Shown here in pieces: positions 7,230 through 24,137 of a DNA stretch of 24,643 bases (positions are counted from its first letter, which is position 1; every line of letters begins with the position of its first letter). The translations under genes were made by a program, and so were the position numbers. The notes beneath the pieces were generated by a model. That model saw only the letters and a list, made by a program, of their open reading frames with translations, did not search any database and was not told the DNA's origin. The stretch is from a virus (taxonomy: Duplodnaviria > Heunggongvirae > Uroviricota > Caudoviricetes), in the IMG/VR virus record IMGVR_UViG_2778261316_000001, positions 1 to 24,643 of that record; one strand, 5' to 3'.

Positions 7230-7556
7230 ATGATTAAAACAACGTTACTATTTTTTGCTACTGCGCTGTGTGAAATTATTGGATGCTTTCTGCCCTGGTT
7301 GTGGTTAAAACGAAACGCCAGTATCTGGCTGTTGCTTCCGGCGGGGATTTCACTGGCGCTGTTTGTCTGGTTGTTAACGTTGCATCCAGCGGCGAGTGGG
7401 CGTGTTTACGCGGCTTATGGTGGCGTTTATGTCTGCACGGCGTTGATGTGGTTGCGCGTTGTGGATGGCGTGAAACTGACTCTTTATGACTGGACGGGTG
7501 CGTTGATTGCGCTTTGCGGCATGTTGATCATTGTTGCGGGCTGGGGGCGCACGTAG
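7230..7556 (+). CDS. ynfA: YnfA, UPF0060 small inner-membrane protein, 108 aa
   Basis: Four hydrophobic helices; [26 protein letters not shown] matches recalled YnfA. Confidence 0.88.
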
Positions 7557-7761
7557 GAACATAAATCCATTTTATCAATAAGATAAGAGGAAGTGTCAGC
7601 TGACAAAAGGTATTCTATTTCATCTTTTGTCAACCATTCACAGCGCAAATATACGCCTTTTTTTGTGATCACTCCGGCTTTTTTCGATCTTTATACTTGT
7701 ATGGTAGTAGCTCAGTTGCGTAGATTTCATGCATCACGACAAGCGATGCAAGGAATCGAAC

Positions 7762-14949: not shown

Positions 14950-15002
14950 GGGCGGCAGAGCAGTCACGGAGTAAAACTGATACCGCCAAACGTCACCAGA
15001 AA
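14950..15002 (-). ncRNA. dicF: DicF small RNA (53 nt) with intrinsic terminator
   Basis: Reverse complement reads TTTCTGGTGACGTTTGGCGGTATCAGTTTTACTCCGTGACTGCTCTGCCGCCC followed by TTTTT, identical to the recalled K-12 DicF sequence. Confidence 0.9.
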
Positions 15003-18230: not shown

Positions 18231-18653
18231 GTGGCAAAAGTTTTTACACAAGAAGAGCGGGAAAAAATTAAATGGCAGGTGGTGGAACTCGTGCGCCAGA
18301 GCGGCCGTGAGACGTTACGGCAACTGGAAGCTAAAACAGGTGCGACTAGATATCTGATGAGCGTTCTTGCCAGAGAGCTGGTAGCCAGTGGCGATGTATA
18401 CAACTCCGGCTACGGGTTATTCCCCTCTGAACAGGCGCGTAAGGACTGGCAAAACGCCCGCAAAAAACTCTCGAGGGCAAAGGTGAAGAAACCTGCTGTG
18501 GTTGATCCGGACCTTATCTGGTCATCACCTGACGGAGAAATACGTCGCTACGACAGTCGCCTAAACATAATCTGTCGCGAGTGCCGGAAGAGCGAAGTTA
18601 TGCAGCGCATACTGGCTTTCTATCAGGGTAATTTTCAGGACGTGGCGCAGTGA
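18231..18653 (+). CDS. Hypothetical prophage protein, 140 aa (GTG start)
   Basis: ORF after the replication gene, overlapping the methyltransferase start (GTGA); basic, with a CxxC pair (CRECRK). Confidence 0.4.
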   Translation: MAKVFTQEEREKIKWQVVELVRQSGRETLRQLEAKTGATRYLMSVLARELVASGDVYNSGYGLFPSEQARKDWQNARKKLSRAKVKKPAVVDPDLIWSSPDGEIRRYDSRLNIICRECRKSEVMQRILAFYQGNFQDVAQ

Positions 18654-20157: not shown

Positions 20158-20337
20158 ATGAAAAACGCATTGCAGTTTTTGTTTGTTGCGTTCTGGTTGT
20201 TCGCATCATGTATGCCCATCATCTTCACAGCAAGGTATATGGAAAAAGTTGATGTTTTGATATTAATATTTGGATATATAAATGCCCTTTTTTTAGGGGT
20301 GTTCATGGCGGTCATGTGCATTGAATACTGGCGGTAA
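20158..20337 (+). CDS. Small two-helix membrane protein, 59 aa
   Basis: Strong RBS (TAGGAGGAATAATG), A+T-rich upstream region; MKNALQFLFVAFWLFASCMPIIFTARYMEKVDVLILIFGYINALFLGVFMAVMCIEYWR. Confidence 0.4.
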   Translation: MKNALQFLFVAFWLFASCMPIIFTARYMEKVDVLILIFGYINALFLGVFMAVMCIEYWR

Positions 20338-20643
20338 ATACAGCGAACTCCATTGGTTTAGTTGGATATTTACTGTGCTGGACAAAAACGGTTTGCGGGG
20401 AAATCTTAGTTAAGTAGAATGACTGCGGGTGCTTGAGGCTATCTGCCTCGGGCATGGACACCAACGGCAGATAGAGAAAAGCCCCAGTTAACATTACGCG
20501 TCCTGCAAGACGCTTAACATTAATCTGAGGCCAATTTCATGCTAGACACATGTAGGTTAGCCTCTTACGTGCCGAAAGGCACGGAGAAGCAGGCTATTGT
20601 TAACACCAAGCTGTAATGTCCCCTTTGAACCATTCTAAAATGT

Positions 20644-20670
20644 CCCCAGACAATTCTCTGGGGGATTTTT
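20644..20670 (+). terminator. Intrinsic terminator-like hairpin (CCCCAG...CTGGGG + TTTTT) immediately upstream of the transposase start
   Basis: 6-bp GC-rich stem, 8-nt loop, then GATTTTT; ends 1 nt before the ATG at 20672. Confidence 0.4.
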
Positions 20671-20671
20671 C

Positions 20672-22012
20672 ATGATCAAAGAGACTGTTACGATGAGTCA
20701 TAAGGAACTCCACCGACTTCAGATTATTCAGGAGTCAATTAATCGACATATTACTCAGGAACAAGCTGCGGCACGCATTGGCATTTCTATTCGGCAGGTT
20801 AAACGTCTGGTGCAACGGTATAGAAATGAAGGGCCTTCTGGTCTGGTTTCCCACCGACGTGGAAAGCGTCCTAATAATTCCTTTTCTACTGAATTCAGAG
20901 CAACAGTAATTTCACTCCTCAAAGGCCGTTACGCTGATTTTGGACCTACGTTTGCGTGCGAAAAATTGCGCGAGATACACGGTTTATCTTTATCCGTTGA
21001 AACTCTCAGAAAGTGGATGATAGAAGAGGGGTTATGGCGTGAACGCCGTCGTAAAATTGCCCGTATATATCAACGCCGCATGCGACGACCATCTTACGGT
21101 GAACTGATCCAGATTGATGGCTCACCTCATGACTGGTTTGAAAATCGAGGCCCCAGATGTACACTGATCGTTTTCATTGATGATGCCACCAGTGCGTTGA
21201 TGGCGTTGCGTTTTGTGCCTGCTGAAACAACCCGGGCTTACATGGAAACCCTCCGGGGTTACCTTAATGATCATGGCGTACCGCTCGCTCTCTACTCTGA
21301 TAGACACAGTATATTCAGGGTAAATAACCCAGAGCGGGAAGGTGAGCTGACCCAGTTCACTCGTGCGATAAAGACACTGGGCATCGAGCCAATCCATGCC
21401 AACAGCCCGCAGGCAAAAGGGCGGGTAGAGCGCGCCAATCAGACACTACAGGACAGGCTGGTCAAAGAAATGCGGCTTCAGAATATCAGTGATATTGAAA
21501 CAGCAAATGCATGGTTGCCGACCTTTATTGAAGCCTATAACAACCGGTTCGCTACGTCGCCTCGTACTACTGATAATGCTCATCTTGATGTGCACCATTC
21601 TGAAGAGGAACTGGGTTATATCTTCAGCCTACAGGCGAAGCGCGTTCTGTCTAAAAATCTCACTTTCCAGTACAAAAGCAGTGCGTTTCAGGTACGCAGT
21701 GAGAGCCGGGGATATCGACTTAGGCATTCGGTTGTTACTGTATGCGAGAACTTTGACGGTGAAATTAACGTTCTGTATGACGGGAAAGCGCTGGGCTGGG
21801 AAAAGTATGTTGATGGCCCGGAGCCTATACCACTGGATGATGAAAAGAGTGTCCATGAACGAGTGGATAATGCCCGTATTGATTTACGCTCAAAATACTA
21901 TGTTAAACCTAAAGCTGACCATCCCTGGCTTACGCGCCGAACGCAAAGTCATCAGCAAGTTAAGCCCCCGAAGTTACCTAAAAAGAAGCCTGATCCCGAT
22001 AAAAAAGATTGA
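20672..22012 (+). CDS. DDE transposase (HTH N-terminus plus rve integrase-core domain), 446 aa; IS481/ISNCY-like
   Basis: N-terminal HTH (ITQEQAAARIGISIRQVKRLVQRY), catalytic core with D...D...E pattern (IQIDGSPHDWF..., LYSDRHSIF, ...RVERANQTLQ), basic C-tail. Family assignment from memory. Confidence 0.8.
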   Translation: MIKETVTMSHKELHRLQIIQESINRHITQEQAAARIGISIRQVKRLVQRYRNEGPSGLVSHRRGKRPNNSFSTEFRATVISLLKGRYADFGPTFACEKLREIHGLSLSVETLRKWMIEEGLWRERRRKIARIYQRRMRRPSYGELIQIDGSPHDWFENRGPRCTLIVFIDDATSALMALRFVPAETTRAYMETLRGYLNDHGVPLALYSDRHSIFRVNNPEREGELTQFTRAIKTLGIEPIHANSPQAKGRVERANQTLQDRLVKEMRLQNISDIETANAWLPTFIEAYNNRFATSPRTTDNAHLDVHHSEEELGYIFSLQAKRVLSKNLTFQYKSSAFQVRSESRGYRLRHSVVTVCENFDGEINVLYDGKALGWEKYVDGPEPIPLDDEKSVHERVDNARIDLRSKYYVKPKADHPWLTRRTQSHQQVKPPKLPKKKPDPDKKD

Positions 22013-22404
22013 AACCAAGATCGATTCGGTTGAGTGCATATCCATTCATAGGGTAGATTCTTAAGTCGCGTTTCTGGTGTTCATTTTCGGGTGGTTTGTT
22101 ACTTGTTTTACCGGGGATATGCCAGAAACGCGCTGAGTCAGTCTGGGCGGTGCGCGTAATGAGGCGTTATGGTAAATAGCCTATGCTAATGTCCGCTAAG
22201 AGCAAGAAGCGGAAGTTGGCAGTTTTGTGGACTGTCCCCACAAAAGTGACTACAGAAATAGTTGCAATTCATAATTGATCATGGGTTGTCAGTTAAACTC
22301 GTGGCGATTTAAATAGACTAATTGGGAGTGCGTCCATTACTTATATCTTGTAATGTTAACTATCAGAAATGATACAAAGATAATATGTCTTTAAAGAAAA
22401 GGCT

Positions 22405-22434
22405 GATGGCGAAAAGTGGCCCGATGAGGGCCAC
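22405..22434 (-). terminator. Intrinsic terminator downstream of flxA (GTGGCCC...GGGCCAC + U tract)
   Basis: 7-bp GC-rich inverted repeat 15 nt after the flxA stop, followed on the minus strand by UUUUC. Confidence 0.45.
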
Positions 22435-22448
22435 AATACGGCTGTCAC

Positions 22449-22781
22449 TTAGACGTAAATATCAATGGTGCCAGCGGTATTTGTATCGTCTTTTTTCTCT
22501 TCTTTTTTATCAGGCTGAACTGTCGCGTCTTCATTCTTTTTCTCTGCCTGCTGCCTTAACAACTGCTCCAGTTGAGCCCAGAGGCTTTCAATTTGCTTCT
22601 GTACCAATGCAGCCATTTCTTTTTTCTGCTGTGTCGTCATCCCCTCTTCCGATGAGATTTTCCCAAGCTTTTCAGTCAGCACCTGAATTTGTCTTGTGAT
22701 TTTGGCTATTTCTGATGTTCCTTCCGGGGCGGAGTTGTTTGAAATAACGGTTGAGGTATTTCCCTGAATTGTGACAGACAT
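22449..22781 (-). CDS. flxA: FlxA (FliA-regulated prophage protein), 110 aa
   Basis: Full-length match to recalled FlxA (MSVTIQGNTSTVISNNSAPEGTSEIAKITRQIQVLTEKLG...). Confidence 0.9.
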   Translation of the reverse strand: MSVTIQGNTSTVISNNSAPEGTSEIAKITRQIQVLTEKLGKISSEEGMTTQQKKEMAALVQKQIESLWAQLEQLLRQQAEKKNEDATVQPDKKEEKKDDTNTAGTIDIYV

Positions 22782-22804
22782 AGATTTCTCCTTTTAAAAA
22801 AGCA

Positions 22805-22832
22805 CTATCGGCATGAACAAAAAAATCTTTAA
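22805..22832 (-). promoter_or_regulatory. Sigma-28 (FliA) promoter of flxA: TAAAGA-N14-GCCGATAG
   Basis: On the minus strand TAAAGAtttttttgttcatGCCGATAG lies about 25 nt upstream of the flxA ATG; matches class-3 flagellar promoter consensus TAAAGTTT-N11-GCCGATAA. Confidence 0.55.
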
Positions 22833-22983
22833 TCGTATTTCTTGTGTCATTAATTGTTTGATGTTCAGATTGTTTTCCTCGCGGGCTGGCGCGCCTCAGA
22901 AAGTAAAGCTTGTTGACAGGGGTAAACGTTCGGCAATAATTTTCTGCCGCATGCGGGTGTTGCATAAAACGTGTTACGTTCCT

Positions 22984-23289
22984 TTATCGACAGGTCAGGT
23001 CACCGCTCACCCGCCGACGAGAAAGCAACACTGACATGCTAAAGCAAAAAATAGATGAATAAGTTGAGTTGTGCATATGTAGCCTGACCGTCACAAAGTA
23101 TATGGTGTCTGTACCAGTAAGATGATGGCCGGACTCTTTAAAAACGAGCTGACCTGCACAATACAGGATGGACTTAGCAATGGCTGCTCCTGGCAGAAAG
23201 CGGACAGTGATCACCGTTCTTACGACTACTTTCTGACTTCCTTCGTGACTTGCCCTAAGCATGTTGTAGTGCGATACTTGTAATGACAT
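22984..23289 (-). CDS. ydfV: Possible YdfV-like prophage protein, 101 aa
   Basis: Assigned only by position (between flxA and relB) and by size equal to K-12 YdfV; sequence has odd composition and may be non-coding. Confidence 0.3.
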   Translation of the reverse strand: MSLQVSHYNMLRASHEGSQKVVVRTVITVRFLPGAAIAKSILYCAGQLVFKESGHHLTGTDTIYFVTVRLHMHNSTYSSIFCFSMSVLLSRRRVSGDLTCR

Positions 23290-23302
23290 TTGTAATTACA
23301 AG
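23277..23302. promoter_or_regulatory. relBE operator/promoter: CTTGTAAT-N10-ATTACAAG with internal palindrome TTGTAATTACAA
   Basis: Inverted repeats 12 nt upstream of the relB ATG; RelB-RelE autoregulation through such operators is established. Confidence 0.5.
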
Positions 23303-23313
23303 AGGTGTAAGAC

Positions 23314-23553
23314 ATGGGTAGCATTAACCTGCGTATTGACGATGAACTTAAAGCGCGTTCTTACGCCGCGCTTGAAAAAATGGGTGTAACTCCTTCTGAA
23401 GCGCTTCGTCTCATGCTCGAGTATATCGCTGACAATGAACGCTTGCCGTTCAAACAGACACTCCTGAGTGATGAAGATGCTGAACTTGTGGAGATAGTGA
23501 AAGAACGGCTTCGTAATCCTAAGCCAGTACGTGTGACGCTGGATGAACTCTGA
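23314..23553 (+). CDS. relB: RelB antitoxin, 79 aa
   Basis: Near-identical to recalled RelB (MGSINLRIDDELKARSYA...PKPVRVTLDEL). Confidence 0.92.
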   Translation: MGSINLRIDDELKARSYAALEKMGVTPSEALRLMLEYIADNERLPFKQTLLSDEDAELVEIVKERLRNPKPVRVTLDEL

Positions 23554-23840
23554 TGGCGTATTTTCTGGATTTTGACGAGCGGGCACTAAAGGAATGGCGA
23601 AAGCTGGGCTCGACGGTACGTGAACAGTTGAAAAAGAAGCTGGTTGAAGTACTTGAGTCACCCCGGATTGAAGCAAACAAGCTCCGTGGTATGCCTGATT
23701 GTTACAAGATTAAGCTCCGGTCTTCAGGCTATCGCCTTGTATACCAGGTTATAGACGAGAAAGTTGTCGTTTTCGTGATTTCTGTTGGGAAAAGAGAACG
23801 CTCGGAAGTATATAGCGAGGCGGTCAAACGCATTCTCTGA
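23553..23840 (+). CDS. relE: RelE mRNA interferase toxin, 95 aa
   Basis: Matches recalled RelE (MAYFLDFDERALKEWRKLGSTVREQLKKKL...); start overlaps the relB stop. Confidence 0.92.
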   Translation: MAYFLDFDERALKEWRKLGSTVREQLKKKLVEVLESPRIEANKLRGMPDCYKIKLRSSGYRLVYQVIDEKVVVFVISVGKRERSEVYSEAVKRIL

Positions 23841-23911
23841 ACCAAAGCATGACATCTCTGTTTCGCACCGAAGGTGACACTTCTGCTTTGCGTTGACAGG
23901 AGAAGCAGGCT

Positions 23912-24067
23912 ATGAAGCAGCAAAAGGCGATGTTAATCGCCCTGATCGTCATCTGTTTAACCGTCATAGTGACGGCACTGGTAACGAGGAAAGACCTCTG
24001 CGAGGTACGAATCCGAACCGGCCAGACGGAGGTCGCTGTCTTCACAGCTTACGAACCTGAGGAGTAA
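23912..24067 (+). CDS. hokD: HokD (RelF) Hok-family membrane toxin, 51 aa
   Basis: MKQQKAMLIALIVICLTVIVTALVTRKDLCEVRIRTGQTEVAVFTAYEPEE, found by manual translation; typical Hok architecture. Confidence 0.85.
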   Translation: MKQQKAMLIALIVICLTVIVTALVTRKDLCEVRIRTGQTEVAVFTAYEPEE

Positions 24068-24137
24068 GAGACTCGGCGAGTGAGAAATCCCTCGCCACCT
24101 CTGATGTGGCAGGCATCCTCAACGCACCCGCACTTAA

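Follow-up and report, generated by a model that had tools for sequence, protein, structure and literature searches.

The hairpin-rich region beside an ISEsa1-type transposase: a hok mRNA leader severed from its toxin ORF by a relBE-carrying transposon

Which identity is to be assigned to some 300 nucleotides of hairpin-dense DNA that lie between a small hydrophobic open reading frame (ORF) and a transposase gene in a virus genome? The question was raised by the IMG/VR record IMGVR_UViG_2778261316_000001 (Caudoviricetes), of which positions 1 to 24,643 were analysed; this whole stretch is referred to as the window. A sequence-only reading had described three perfect inverted repeats within 20340-20640, a region covered by no ORF, and had left open whether they mark a structured RNA, the terminal region of an insertion sequence (IS) or a regulatory leader. 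We take the region to be the promoter and the structured mRNA leader of the toxin gene hok, with the gene for the antisense RNA Sok on the opposite strand, a reading to which a probability of roughly nine in ten is assigned. The leader ends within the hok start codon, where a transposon of the IS1202 family (ISEsa1 type) carrying the toxin-antitoxin (TA) genes relBE has been inserted, and the remainder of hok, i.e., the hokD toxin ORF, is found on the far side of this transposon. As a consequence, the leader is physically uncoupled from hok.

The identification is based on an Rfam scan of the whole window, as had been proposed in the sequence-only reading, which returned only two matches, one to DicF and one to RF01794 ('sok antitoxin'). 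The latter covers 20427-20598 of the plus strand with 104.1 bits (E = 5.8e-23), spans model positions 1-157 of 157 and exceeds the gathering score of 59 bits. RF01794 is named for Sok, yet the model fits the hok-sense strand from the 5' end of the mRNA to the hok AUG, with Sok lying opposite and inside the model, and in eleven loci (the window and ten others) the match was found on the hok-carrying strand. Folding of the 171 nt at 20427-20597 yielded -64.5 kcal/mol as compared to -46.2 +/- 4.0 kcal/mol in 200 dinucleotide shuffles (z = -4.56), none of which was as stable, and for the minus strand at 20466-20556 a z of -4.28 was obtained. All three inverted repeats described earlier are present, the neighbouring genes agree with the earlier description, with the hydrophobic small ORF (20158-20337) on one side and the transposase gene on the other, and the statement that no ORF covers the region is essentially right, as the only overlaps are mechanical ORFs of at most 60 amino acids and a 25-codon remnant of the mok frame. 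The interval itself has to be divided, since its final 43 nt (20598-20640) constitute the left inverted repeat of the transposon and hence an object separate from the leader. Structured RNA and regulatory leader were thus both right in kind, as documented by the RF01794 match, the colinearity with empty sites and the comparison of leaders, except that the leader belongs to the displaced toxin gene and not to the transposase. The RNA element itself is of an ordinary, known kind that is already in Rfam.

Each of the three hairpins (Table 1) was assigned to a part of the hok/sok architecture. Hairpin 1 belongs to the Rfam consensus structure; its pairing is maintained across 11 diverse hok leaders, two of the pairs showing compensatory changes. 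When the leader is folded in isolation, the structure of lowest energy favours another 5' hairpin, which agrees with the metastable structures that hok mRNAs are known to adopt. Hairpin 2 is an insertion relative to the Rfam consensus, absent from the other 10 compared leaders and present in the two empty sites L001 and L003 (loci are denoted by L numbers), and it represents a lineage-specific extra tip of 17 nt on the second stem-loop; read on the minus strand, it forms the tip of the Sok terminator hairpin and extends it, followed by CUUUUCUCU. Hairpin 3 is located just 5' of the hok Shine-Dalgarno (SD) sequence and on the minus strand also holds the Sok -35 box; its GCC/GGC pairs are kept in 11 leaders, whereby the loops read GAAA, GCAA or GGAA. 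Position 20582 is C in the window and A in the empty sites, and it is only because of this A-to-C exchange that hairpin 3 possesses a perfect 6-bp stem. The same exchange converts AAGGAG into ACGGAG and the Sok -35 box from TTGCCT (as in L003) into GTGCCT; the position varies among insertion carriers, 58 sampled loci having C and at least 20 having A. The -10 box, the 17-nt spacer and the hairpin with its U-tract are present in the putative Sok gene of the window, and Sok may be further weakened by the T-to-G change in its -35 box. The hok -10 box ends 6 nt upstream of position 1 of the Rfam model, so positioned that the leader would start near 20427, and its sequence TAGAAT is kept in L001 and L003. 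In the intact locus L003 the mok frame runs in frame into hok (19 + 51 = 70 codons), which matches the remark on a change of hokD from '70 to 51 codons' in PMC6379469.

That hokD and the hairpin region once formed a single locus follows from a target-site duplication, an in-silico excision and a fold-back pairing. The 15 bp GGAGAAGCAGGCTAT occur twice in the window, on either side of the transposon, and once in each of L001 and L003. Upon deletion of 20598-23913 in silico, the remaining sequence aligned end to end with L003 and L001 with few substitutions, through the leader, the 51-codon hok ORF and the 3' untranslated region, and for L003 further into rem. In L003 the leader is 98.4% identical and HokD is identical, followed by rem, a DUF968 gene, rusA and Q, and in L001 the same small gene is found upstream. 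Contiguous leader and hokD loci were thus looked for and do exist, while in the window, where the IS end begins at 20598, the Hok ORF adjoins the 3' end of the leader only after excision. Moreover, the 5' end of hok mRNAs is known from the R1 system to pair with a 3' fold-back element, and the leader 5' end at 20427-20450 forms a duplex of -32.3 kcal/mol with 24105-24130 downstream of hokD, the best of 501 windows across 24.6 kb and a value reached by 1 of 500 shuffles; these partners are now 3.7 kb apart.

A similarity search with 20340-20640 against complete Escherichia coli genomes gave matches in 4,332 of them, with related hok leaders at a median of 2 places per matching genome, and in the Hok-annotated matching loci (more than 1,500 in E. 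coli) the similarity always ends at query position 258, which is window position 20597. The junction of leader and IS is complete in 693 of 5,426 complete E. coli genomes, and a stretch of 4.4 kb is shared at 100% identity between the window and a chromosome of Shigella flexneri (L015). Strains such as E. coli CFSAN064036 and S. flexneri SFBU0723 carry the complete junction and are 100% identical to the window in this part. In one lineage, a secondary deletion was seen in L083, L085 and 14 further loci, joining window ~18590 to ~20570 and fusing a DUF977-like gene (18231-18653) to the GNRA hairpin via the microhomology gtgccg(g)aa; it removes most of the hok leader and retains the IS junction.

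The inserted element lies between the hok SD sequence and the G of the hok ATG. Its left end (TGTTAAC... at 20598) is the same in loci with unrelated left flanks, including copies from Hahella (62% protein identity), and its right end at 23898 (...GCGTTGACA) is common to L006-L012, L016, L020-L023, L048 and L074, with a similar version (...GCTTTGCGTTGACA) in L036. Near each end the inner part of the repeat is found a second time (20605-20623 and 20629-20647 on the left, 23849-23864 and 23873-23889 on the right), and the same layout was identified in the Hahella IS. The right-end architecture is homologous to the right end of this simple 1.45-kb Hahella IS, of which at least 10 copies exist, each with a 15-17-bp duplication. 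An internal right end near 22206, the limit of core homology, was considered and rejected, as an ungapped scan revealed nothing above background there, and 23898 was taken as the sole right end. The transposase possesses the Pfam domains HTH_28/29/32/23 and rve_3 and is named 'IS1202-like element ISEsa1 family' by PGAP.

Table 1. Coordinates of the split hok locus and of the transposon within it (positions refer to the window)
Feature	Position	Strand	Remarks
hok promoter (putative)	20392-20420	+	-35 TTTGCG 20392-20397, 17-nt spacer, -10 TAGAAT 20415-20420
Truncated hok mRNA leader (last two letters AT, from the hok ATG)	20427-20597	+	RF01794; colinear with L001/L003; fold z
Hairpin 1 (long 5' leader stem)	20439-20474	+	CTATCTGCC 20439-20447 pairs with GGCAGATAG 20466-20474
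Hairpin 2	20498-20513	+	GCGTC 20498-20502, loop CTGCAA, GACGC 20509-20513
Hairpin 3 (GNRA loop)	20568-20583	+	CGTGCC 20568-20573, loop GAAA, GGCACG 20578-20583
Sok antisense RNA gene (putative)	20474-20547	-	about 74 nt, ends approximate; start placed by promoter position
Sok promoter (putative)	20554-20582	-	-10 TAACCT 20559-20554, 17-nt spacer, -35 GTGCCT 20582-20577
mok frame remnant	20539-20616	+	25 codons, runs into the IS, stop TAA
Target-site duplication, left copy	20583-20597		GGAGAAGCAGGCTAT, 15 bp
IS1202-family (ISEsa1-type) transposon	20598-23898	+	3,301 bp, 5'-TGT...ACA-3' ends
Left inverted repeat and second, internal repeat of its inner part	20598-20647	+	TGTTAACACCAAGCTGTAATGTCCCC; internal copy 20629-20647, direct repeat
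Hairpin and T-run in the IS end	20643-20664	+	ATTTTT; terminator-like; covers transposase SD, overlaps second transposase-site repeat
Transposase	20672-22012	+	446 aa; NCBIfam NF033594 ISNCY, 466 bits (cut-off 250)
flxA (cargo)	22449-22781	-	Pfam FlxA 53.8 bits; annotated in L002, L233
ydfV (cargo)	22984-23289	-	5' part in conserved relBE block starting near 23186
relB antitoxin (cargo)	23314-23553	+	Pfam RelB 112 bits
relE toxin (cargo)	23553-23840	+	Pfam ParE_toxin 51 bits
Right inverted repeat and internal repeat	23849-23898	+	...GGTGACACTTCTGCTTTGCGTTGACA; internal repeat ATGACATCTCTGTTTC; ends ...TTGACA
Target-site duplication, right copy	23899-23913		GGAGAAGCAGGCTAT, just 5' of hokD ATG
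hokD toxin ORF	23912-24067	+	Pfam HOK_GEF (PF01848), 82.9 bits; contiguous with leader in empty sites
fbi-like 3' fold-back element	24105-24130	+	complementary to leader 5' end 20427-20450

Relatives come from two sources, namely a set with a single genome for each species (78 loci) and an exact left-end search in viral and metagenome contigs (150 loci). The enterobacterial elements, 3,301-7,694 bp in size, share two blocks, namely a core (20598-~22206) and a block made up of relBE and the right end (23186-23898), with variable cargo in between; identity in the relBE block stays at 98-99% even in elements whose core identity falls to 91%. Apart from the genes listed in Table 1, cytochrome b561, a cation-diffusion-facilitator (CDF) transporter and the IS110-type ISEsa2 were found as cargo on IncHI2-type plasmids, and elsewhere a LysR regulator with membrane proteins or an AAA kinase. 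The 6.1-kb form with ISEsa2, cytochrome b561 and the CDF gene before relBE is seen on the Cronobacter sakazakii IncHI2 plasmid pGW1 (L234, 8001-14100) and in L006 and L009. In a Scandinavium element (L036, 5927-10201; 4,275 bp), whose core is 71% identical, a TacA antitoxin and a GNAT toxin occupy the position of relBE, and the cargo also includes GrpB and a hexapeptide acyltransferase. The presence of a TA module next to the right end seems to recur in the family. The left end of the family was detected in 621 PLSDB plasmids, 505 of which are conjugative.

Inspection of 240 related loci revealed that the insertion site is not accidental. After near-duplicates had been collapsed, no fewer than 15 clearly distinct hok leaders were found to carry elements of this family, always in one and the same register; these leaders comprise R1-like, HokD-like, HokE-like and a fourth type. 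The left flanks, compared over 45 nt, fall into 73 distinct sequences, of which 35 match the RF01794 consensus (nhmmer E 2e-18 to 3e-4), whereby the matches end around model position 148 of 157, i.e., at the hok SD sequence. The Rfam gathering score is reached by 10 of 14 representative loci, with the match ending at the IS end, and the remaining four possess a different 5' half and match in the 3' half only. All six right-flank ORFs tested encode Hok/Gef proteins of different subtypes, and of nine plasmids sampled at regular intervals among the 621 PLSDB matches, which span IncHI2, IncFII, IncFIB, IncFIA and IncR replicons and six genera, eight carry the element in association with hok. The duplications measure 13-16 bp in 20 verified enterobacterial sites; they differ by locus and match on both sides of the element (GGAGAAGCAGGCTAT, GGAGAAGAAGGCCAT(G), GGAGAAGAAGCCATG, GATATGCTGACAAA, GATGTTAGCCATG and GGAGATGTATGGGTCC), hence documenting separate transposition events. 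Spread between hok loci by homologous recombination was ruled out by these six duplications, and site-specific recombination at an att core was ruled out by the same duplications together with unrelated perfect duplications at sites outside hok. Taken together, the element family shows a strong preference for the hok translation-initiation region.

What determines this preference was approached from several sides. In most sites G[GT]CAA or ACA stands directly 5' of the duplication (hok sites, GGCAA|GGAG; L008, L016, L036, L149, L152 and the Hahella loci L024-L034), a motif that resembles the element termini (TTGACA, TTAACA) but is too short to explain the enrichment at hok by itself. No single rule for the insertion point, be it the distance from the hairpin, the SD sequence or the AUG, fits all sites, as L012 agrees with the hairpin and L038 and L217 with SD or AUG, and the idea that the hok target mimics the terminal repeat of the element was abandoned, since the 9 of 26 matches counted by eye are no better than chance. 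On IncHI2 and IncF plasmids (left flanks of L145 and L236; L234, 6531-7900) the IS3-family element ISKpn8 adjoins the same hok leader, and the ISEsa1-type duplication GGAGATGTATGGGTCC spans the apparent end of ISKpn8; this case suggests that the determinant of target choice is located upstream, on the leader side. Tandem pairs at one hok target were identified in five loci (L020, L156, L215, L174 and L195). The related elements in these tandems (L020 at ~7545-7570, L156, L215, L174, L195 and also L238) are separated only by the duplicated 10-16 bp, and some of the upstream elements carry a different right end (...gtgaacttacaca).

Considering these data, it is suggested that ISEsa1-type transposons home to the hok initiation region, consisting of GNRA hairpin, SD sequence and AUG, that a transposon bearing a TA module (relBE or tacAT) thereby uses as its attachment site another TA locus, one virtually confined to plasmids and prophages, that insertion severs hok from its promoter, mok and Sok, places it behind relBE and so accounts for the origin of relBEF, and that the ISfinder entry for ISEsa1 (1,609 bp, no target-site duplication) covers just the conserved left part of a larger mobile unit. 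This combined proposal is regarded as probable, and several observations weigh against it or against the functions assigned to the leader. About 17 insertion sites lie outside hok, so the preference is strong and not absolute, and part of the enrichment at hok may stem from selection that acted once the element was in place. The two inverted repeats match at just 19 of 26 positions, and as an ungapped 52-nt scan did not statistically single out the right end, its placement at 23898 rests on conservation across loci. In a simple sigma-70 consensus scan of 20300-20720 no site was returned at the thresholds used, so that the assignment of the hok and Sok promoters relies on their location and on homology to intact loci, and any activity of Sok, the hok promoter or the hairpin within the IS end is a prediction.

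Among the alternative explanations, the one that survives best assumes that the leader region persists as an orphan Sok antitoxin, acting in trans on related hok mRNAs of other prophages or incoming plasmids and hence serving anti-addiction. The intact -10 box, spacer, body and terminator hairpin of Sok would be in line with this, as would the retention of the junction in the E. coli genomes counted above and the several related hok leaders that many genomes hold. On the other hand, the -35 box is altered in the window and in 58 sampled loci, K-12 and the lineages with the L083-type deletion have lost the region, and the retention may merely reflect recent common descent; the explanation is hence judged unlikely. 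Similarly improbable, and a shade more so, is a co-option of the leader, in which the hok promoter and the Sok-controlled leader would drive or regulate the downstream transposase. Leader and transposase gene do share one orientation, as at nearly all hok sites, the hok -10 box is intact, and the leader ends 75 nt upstream of the transposase ATG; yet the hairpin with its T-run intervenes and covers the transposase SD sequence, the mok frame ends 55 nt before the transposase ATG, rendering translational coupling unlikely, and one insertion (L019) is found in the opposite orientation.

Next to no credence is given to the remaining option of the sequence-only reading, namely that the hairpins are a non-coding terminal part of the IS and travel with it. 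A hok-type leader does adjoin the left end in most sampled copies, but these leaders differ in sequence and subtype, which is explained by the element inserting there, whereas homology between IS copies begins exactly at 20598, as seen in over 20 loci whose left flanks are unrelated. Copies at sites outside hok (L008, L016, L036, L074 and L235) are devoid of the region, none of the copies at unrelated sites tested bearing 20427-20597; intact hok loci possess it without the IS, and the target duplication separates the two. Only 20598-20640 is therefore to be called IS terminus, and 20340-20597 is not. A chance cluster of hairpins in non-coding DNA, for which nothing speaks beyond the weak promoter consensus, is refuted for practical purposes by the fold statistics (z = -4.56, 0 of 200 shuffles), the Rfam E-value of 5.8e-23 and the pairs kept in 11 leaders.

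With the region understood as a severed hok leader, the course of events can be described. The 3,301-bp IS1202-family DDE transposon inserted between the hok SD sequence and the G of the ATG, duplicating 15 bp and leaving hokD 3.3 kb from its leader, directly behind the relBE module. Leader, mok and Sok would then no longer control hok. A transcript from the hok promoter would enter the IS end and would probably be stopped, or left untranslated, at the hairpin with T-run, which probably blocks read-in of outside transcription and translation, such hairpins being the usual protection of IS elements against outside transcription. If Sok is still made, its targets would be the truncated leader or related hok mRNAs elsewhere. 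The SD sequence of hokD is retained inside the duplication, and hokD may be expressed only as the third gene of a relBE operon, as was published for relBEF of K-12.

Comparison with hok/sok of plasmid R1 and with the chromosomal hok loci of E. coli shows how much of the original architecture is left. Shared are the long 5' stem, the mok start, the Sok target, the GNRA hairpin before the SD sequence, a putative antisense Sok gene whose candidate promoter also lies within the leader, and the 3' fold-back element complementary to the 5' end; the locus in the window differs in being cut at the start codon, with the toxin ORF 3.3 kb away and presumably fed by the relBE promoter. Pedersen and Gerdes, in a 1999 paper cited in PMC7232551, reportedly attributed the inactivation of K-12 hokA, hokC and hokE to an IS150 or IS186 close by and that of hokD to 'a major rearrangement'. 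As opposed to IS150 and IS186 in the K-12 loci, the disrupting element in the window is an IS1202-family transposon with cargo, whose exact position recurs in many hok loci.

The relB-relE-hokD operon of K-12 (relBEF, Qin prophage) carries relB, relE, hokD, ydfV and flxA as the same genes in the same order, and the protein accessions are identical in L002 and L233. In K-12 MG1655 the element is kept only from window position 21828 on. A deletion that runs from ydfX into the transposase gene removed its left 1,230 bp together with the complete hok leader and fused the element to a truncated ydfX. The K-12 'ydfW' (49 aa; L233, 3036-3185) corresponds to the last 49 codons of the transposase gene, i.e., to window 21863-22012. 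As a consequence of this deletion, hokD looks like a bare ORF behind relBE in K-12, where the origin of the operon is invisible. In the literature, relBE was described as having arrived by horizontal transfer and entered an ancestral hokD (PMC6379469, PMC5120126), more precisely as 'integrated' into an ancestral hokD of 70 codons (PMC6379469, citing Ramisetty & Santhosh 2016), and relBEF was reported to be co-transcribed (Gotfredsen & Gerdes 1998, as cited in PMC6379469 and PMC5120126). A 2025-26 survey of Hok diversity noted IS genes near hok and named no IS1202 element, and a paper on transcription start sites of Shigella M90T contains nothing on this locus.

With regard to the transposon, the IS1202 family was defined by a transposase of 394-507 aa with an N-terminal helix-turn-helix (HTH) domain and a DDE/RNase H core, by imperfect terminal repeats of ~24-26 bp whose inner part recurs once more close to either end, and by subgroups with target-site duplications of 3-5 bp, of 16-28 bp or, for ISEsa1, none (PMC10132070). 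The element in the window agrees in its 446-aa transposase (~445 aa in the family, likewise with N-terminal HTH and DDE core), its 5'-TGT...ACA-3' ends and its extra internal copies of the inner repeat, which are putative transposase sites. Its 15-bp duplication (15-17 bp in Hahella) comes close to the subgroup with long duplications, and the 13-16 bp found with elements of the window type contradict the 'no TSD' given for ISEsa1, for which no target was found either (PMC10132070). Simple IS of this family measure 1.5-1.6 kb and consist of the transposase gene only within ~1.4-1.7 kb, as the distant Hahella relatives do, whereas the mobile unit here extends over 3.3-7.7 kb (3,301 bp with further genes in the window, 4.2-7.7 kb in relatives) with variable cargo and a TA module, relBE or tacAT in L036, near the right end. 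ISEsa1 was listed with inverted repeats matching at 15 of 22 positions and no target-site duplication (PMC10132070); its listed length is exactly that of the conserved core at 20598-22206 (1,609 bp), and the ISfinder entry therefore probably ends at the limit of this core and not at the true right end. A likeness in principle exists to the ISAjo2 group, which targets pdif/dif, and by analogy to Tn7 and attTn7, as insertion takes place at a fixed position beside a recognisable sequence. The target in the window is the hok translation-initiation region and not a Xer site, with a 15-bp duplication, and membership in the ISAjo2 group was not supported, the flank being a hok leader, as judged without an explicit search for Xer motifs.

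Two further features of the window were recorded. The small ORF at 20158-20337 on the plus strand encodes a hydrophobic product of 59 amino acids, has a good SD sequence, is located just 5' of the hok promoter and is conserved in L001; no match to it was found in Pfam or NCBIfam. The second Rfam match is a full-length DicF small RNA (RF00039) at 14950-15001 on the minus strand (76.7 bits), and DicF, flxA, relBE and hokD together mark the window as a Qin-like defective prophage.

A description of hok targeting by ISEsa1 or IS1202 elements was not found in the literature searched, which does not extend to key older papers, so that parts of the finding may have been described before. What is new is the targeted insertion together with the previously unreported duplication, the RNA element being known. 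With base precision, the origin of relBEF would be traced to a relBE-bearing DDE transposon that landed in a prophage hok gene between SD sequence and ATG, whereby flxA, ydfV and 'ydfW' of K-12 are explained as cargo or debris of that transposon, and the window retains the complete structure which K-12 has lost. Hok genes behind relBE would have lost their type I regulation and should hence not be counted as hok/sok systems, and orphan 'sok' matches of Rfam beside ISNCY transposases represent the other half of such split loci. For the IS1202 family, a target preference has been revealed in a branch for which neither target nor duplication had been reported in the PMC10132070 survey, and as hok is a hallmark of conjugative plasmids and prophages, choosing it as target would guarantee the spread of the element.

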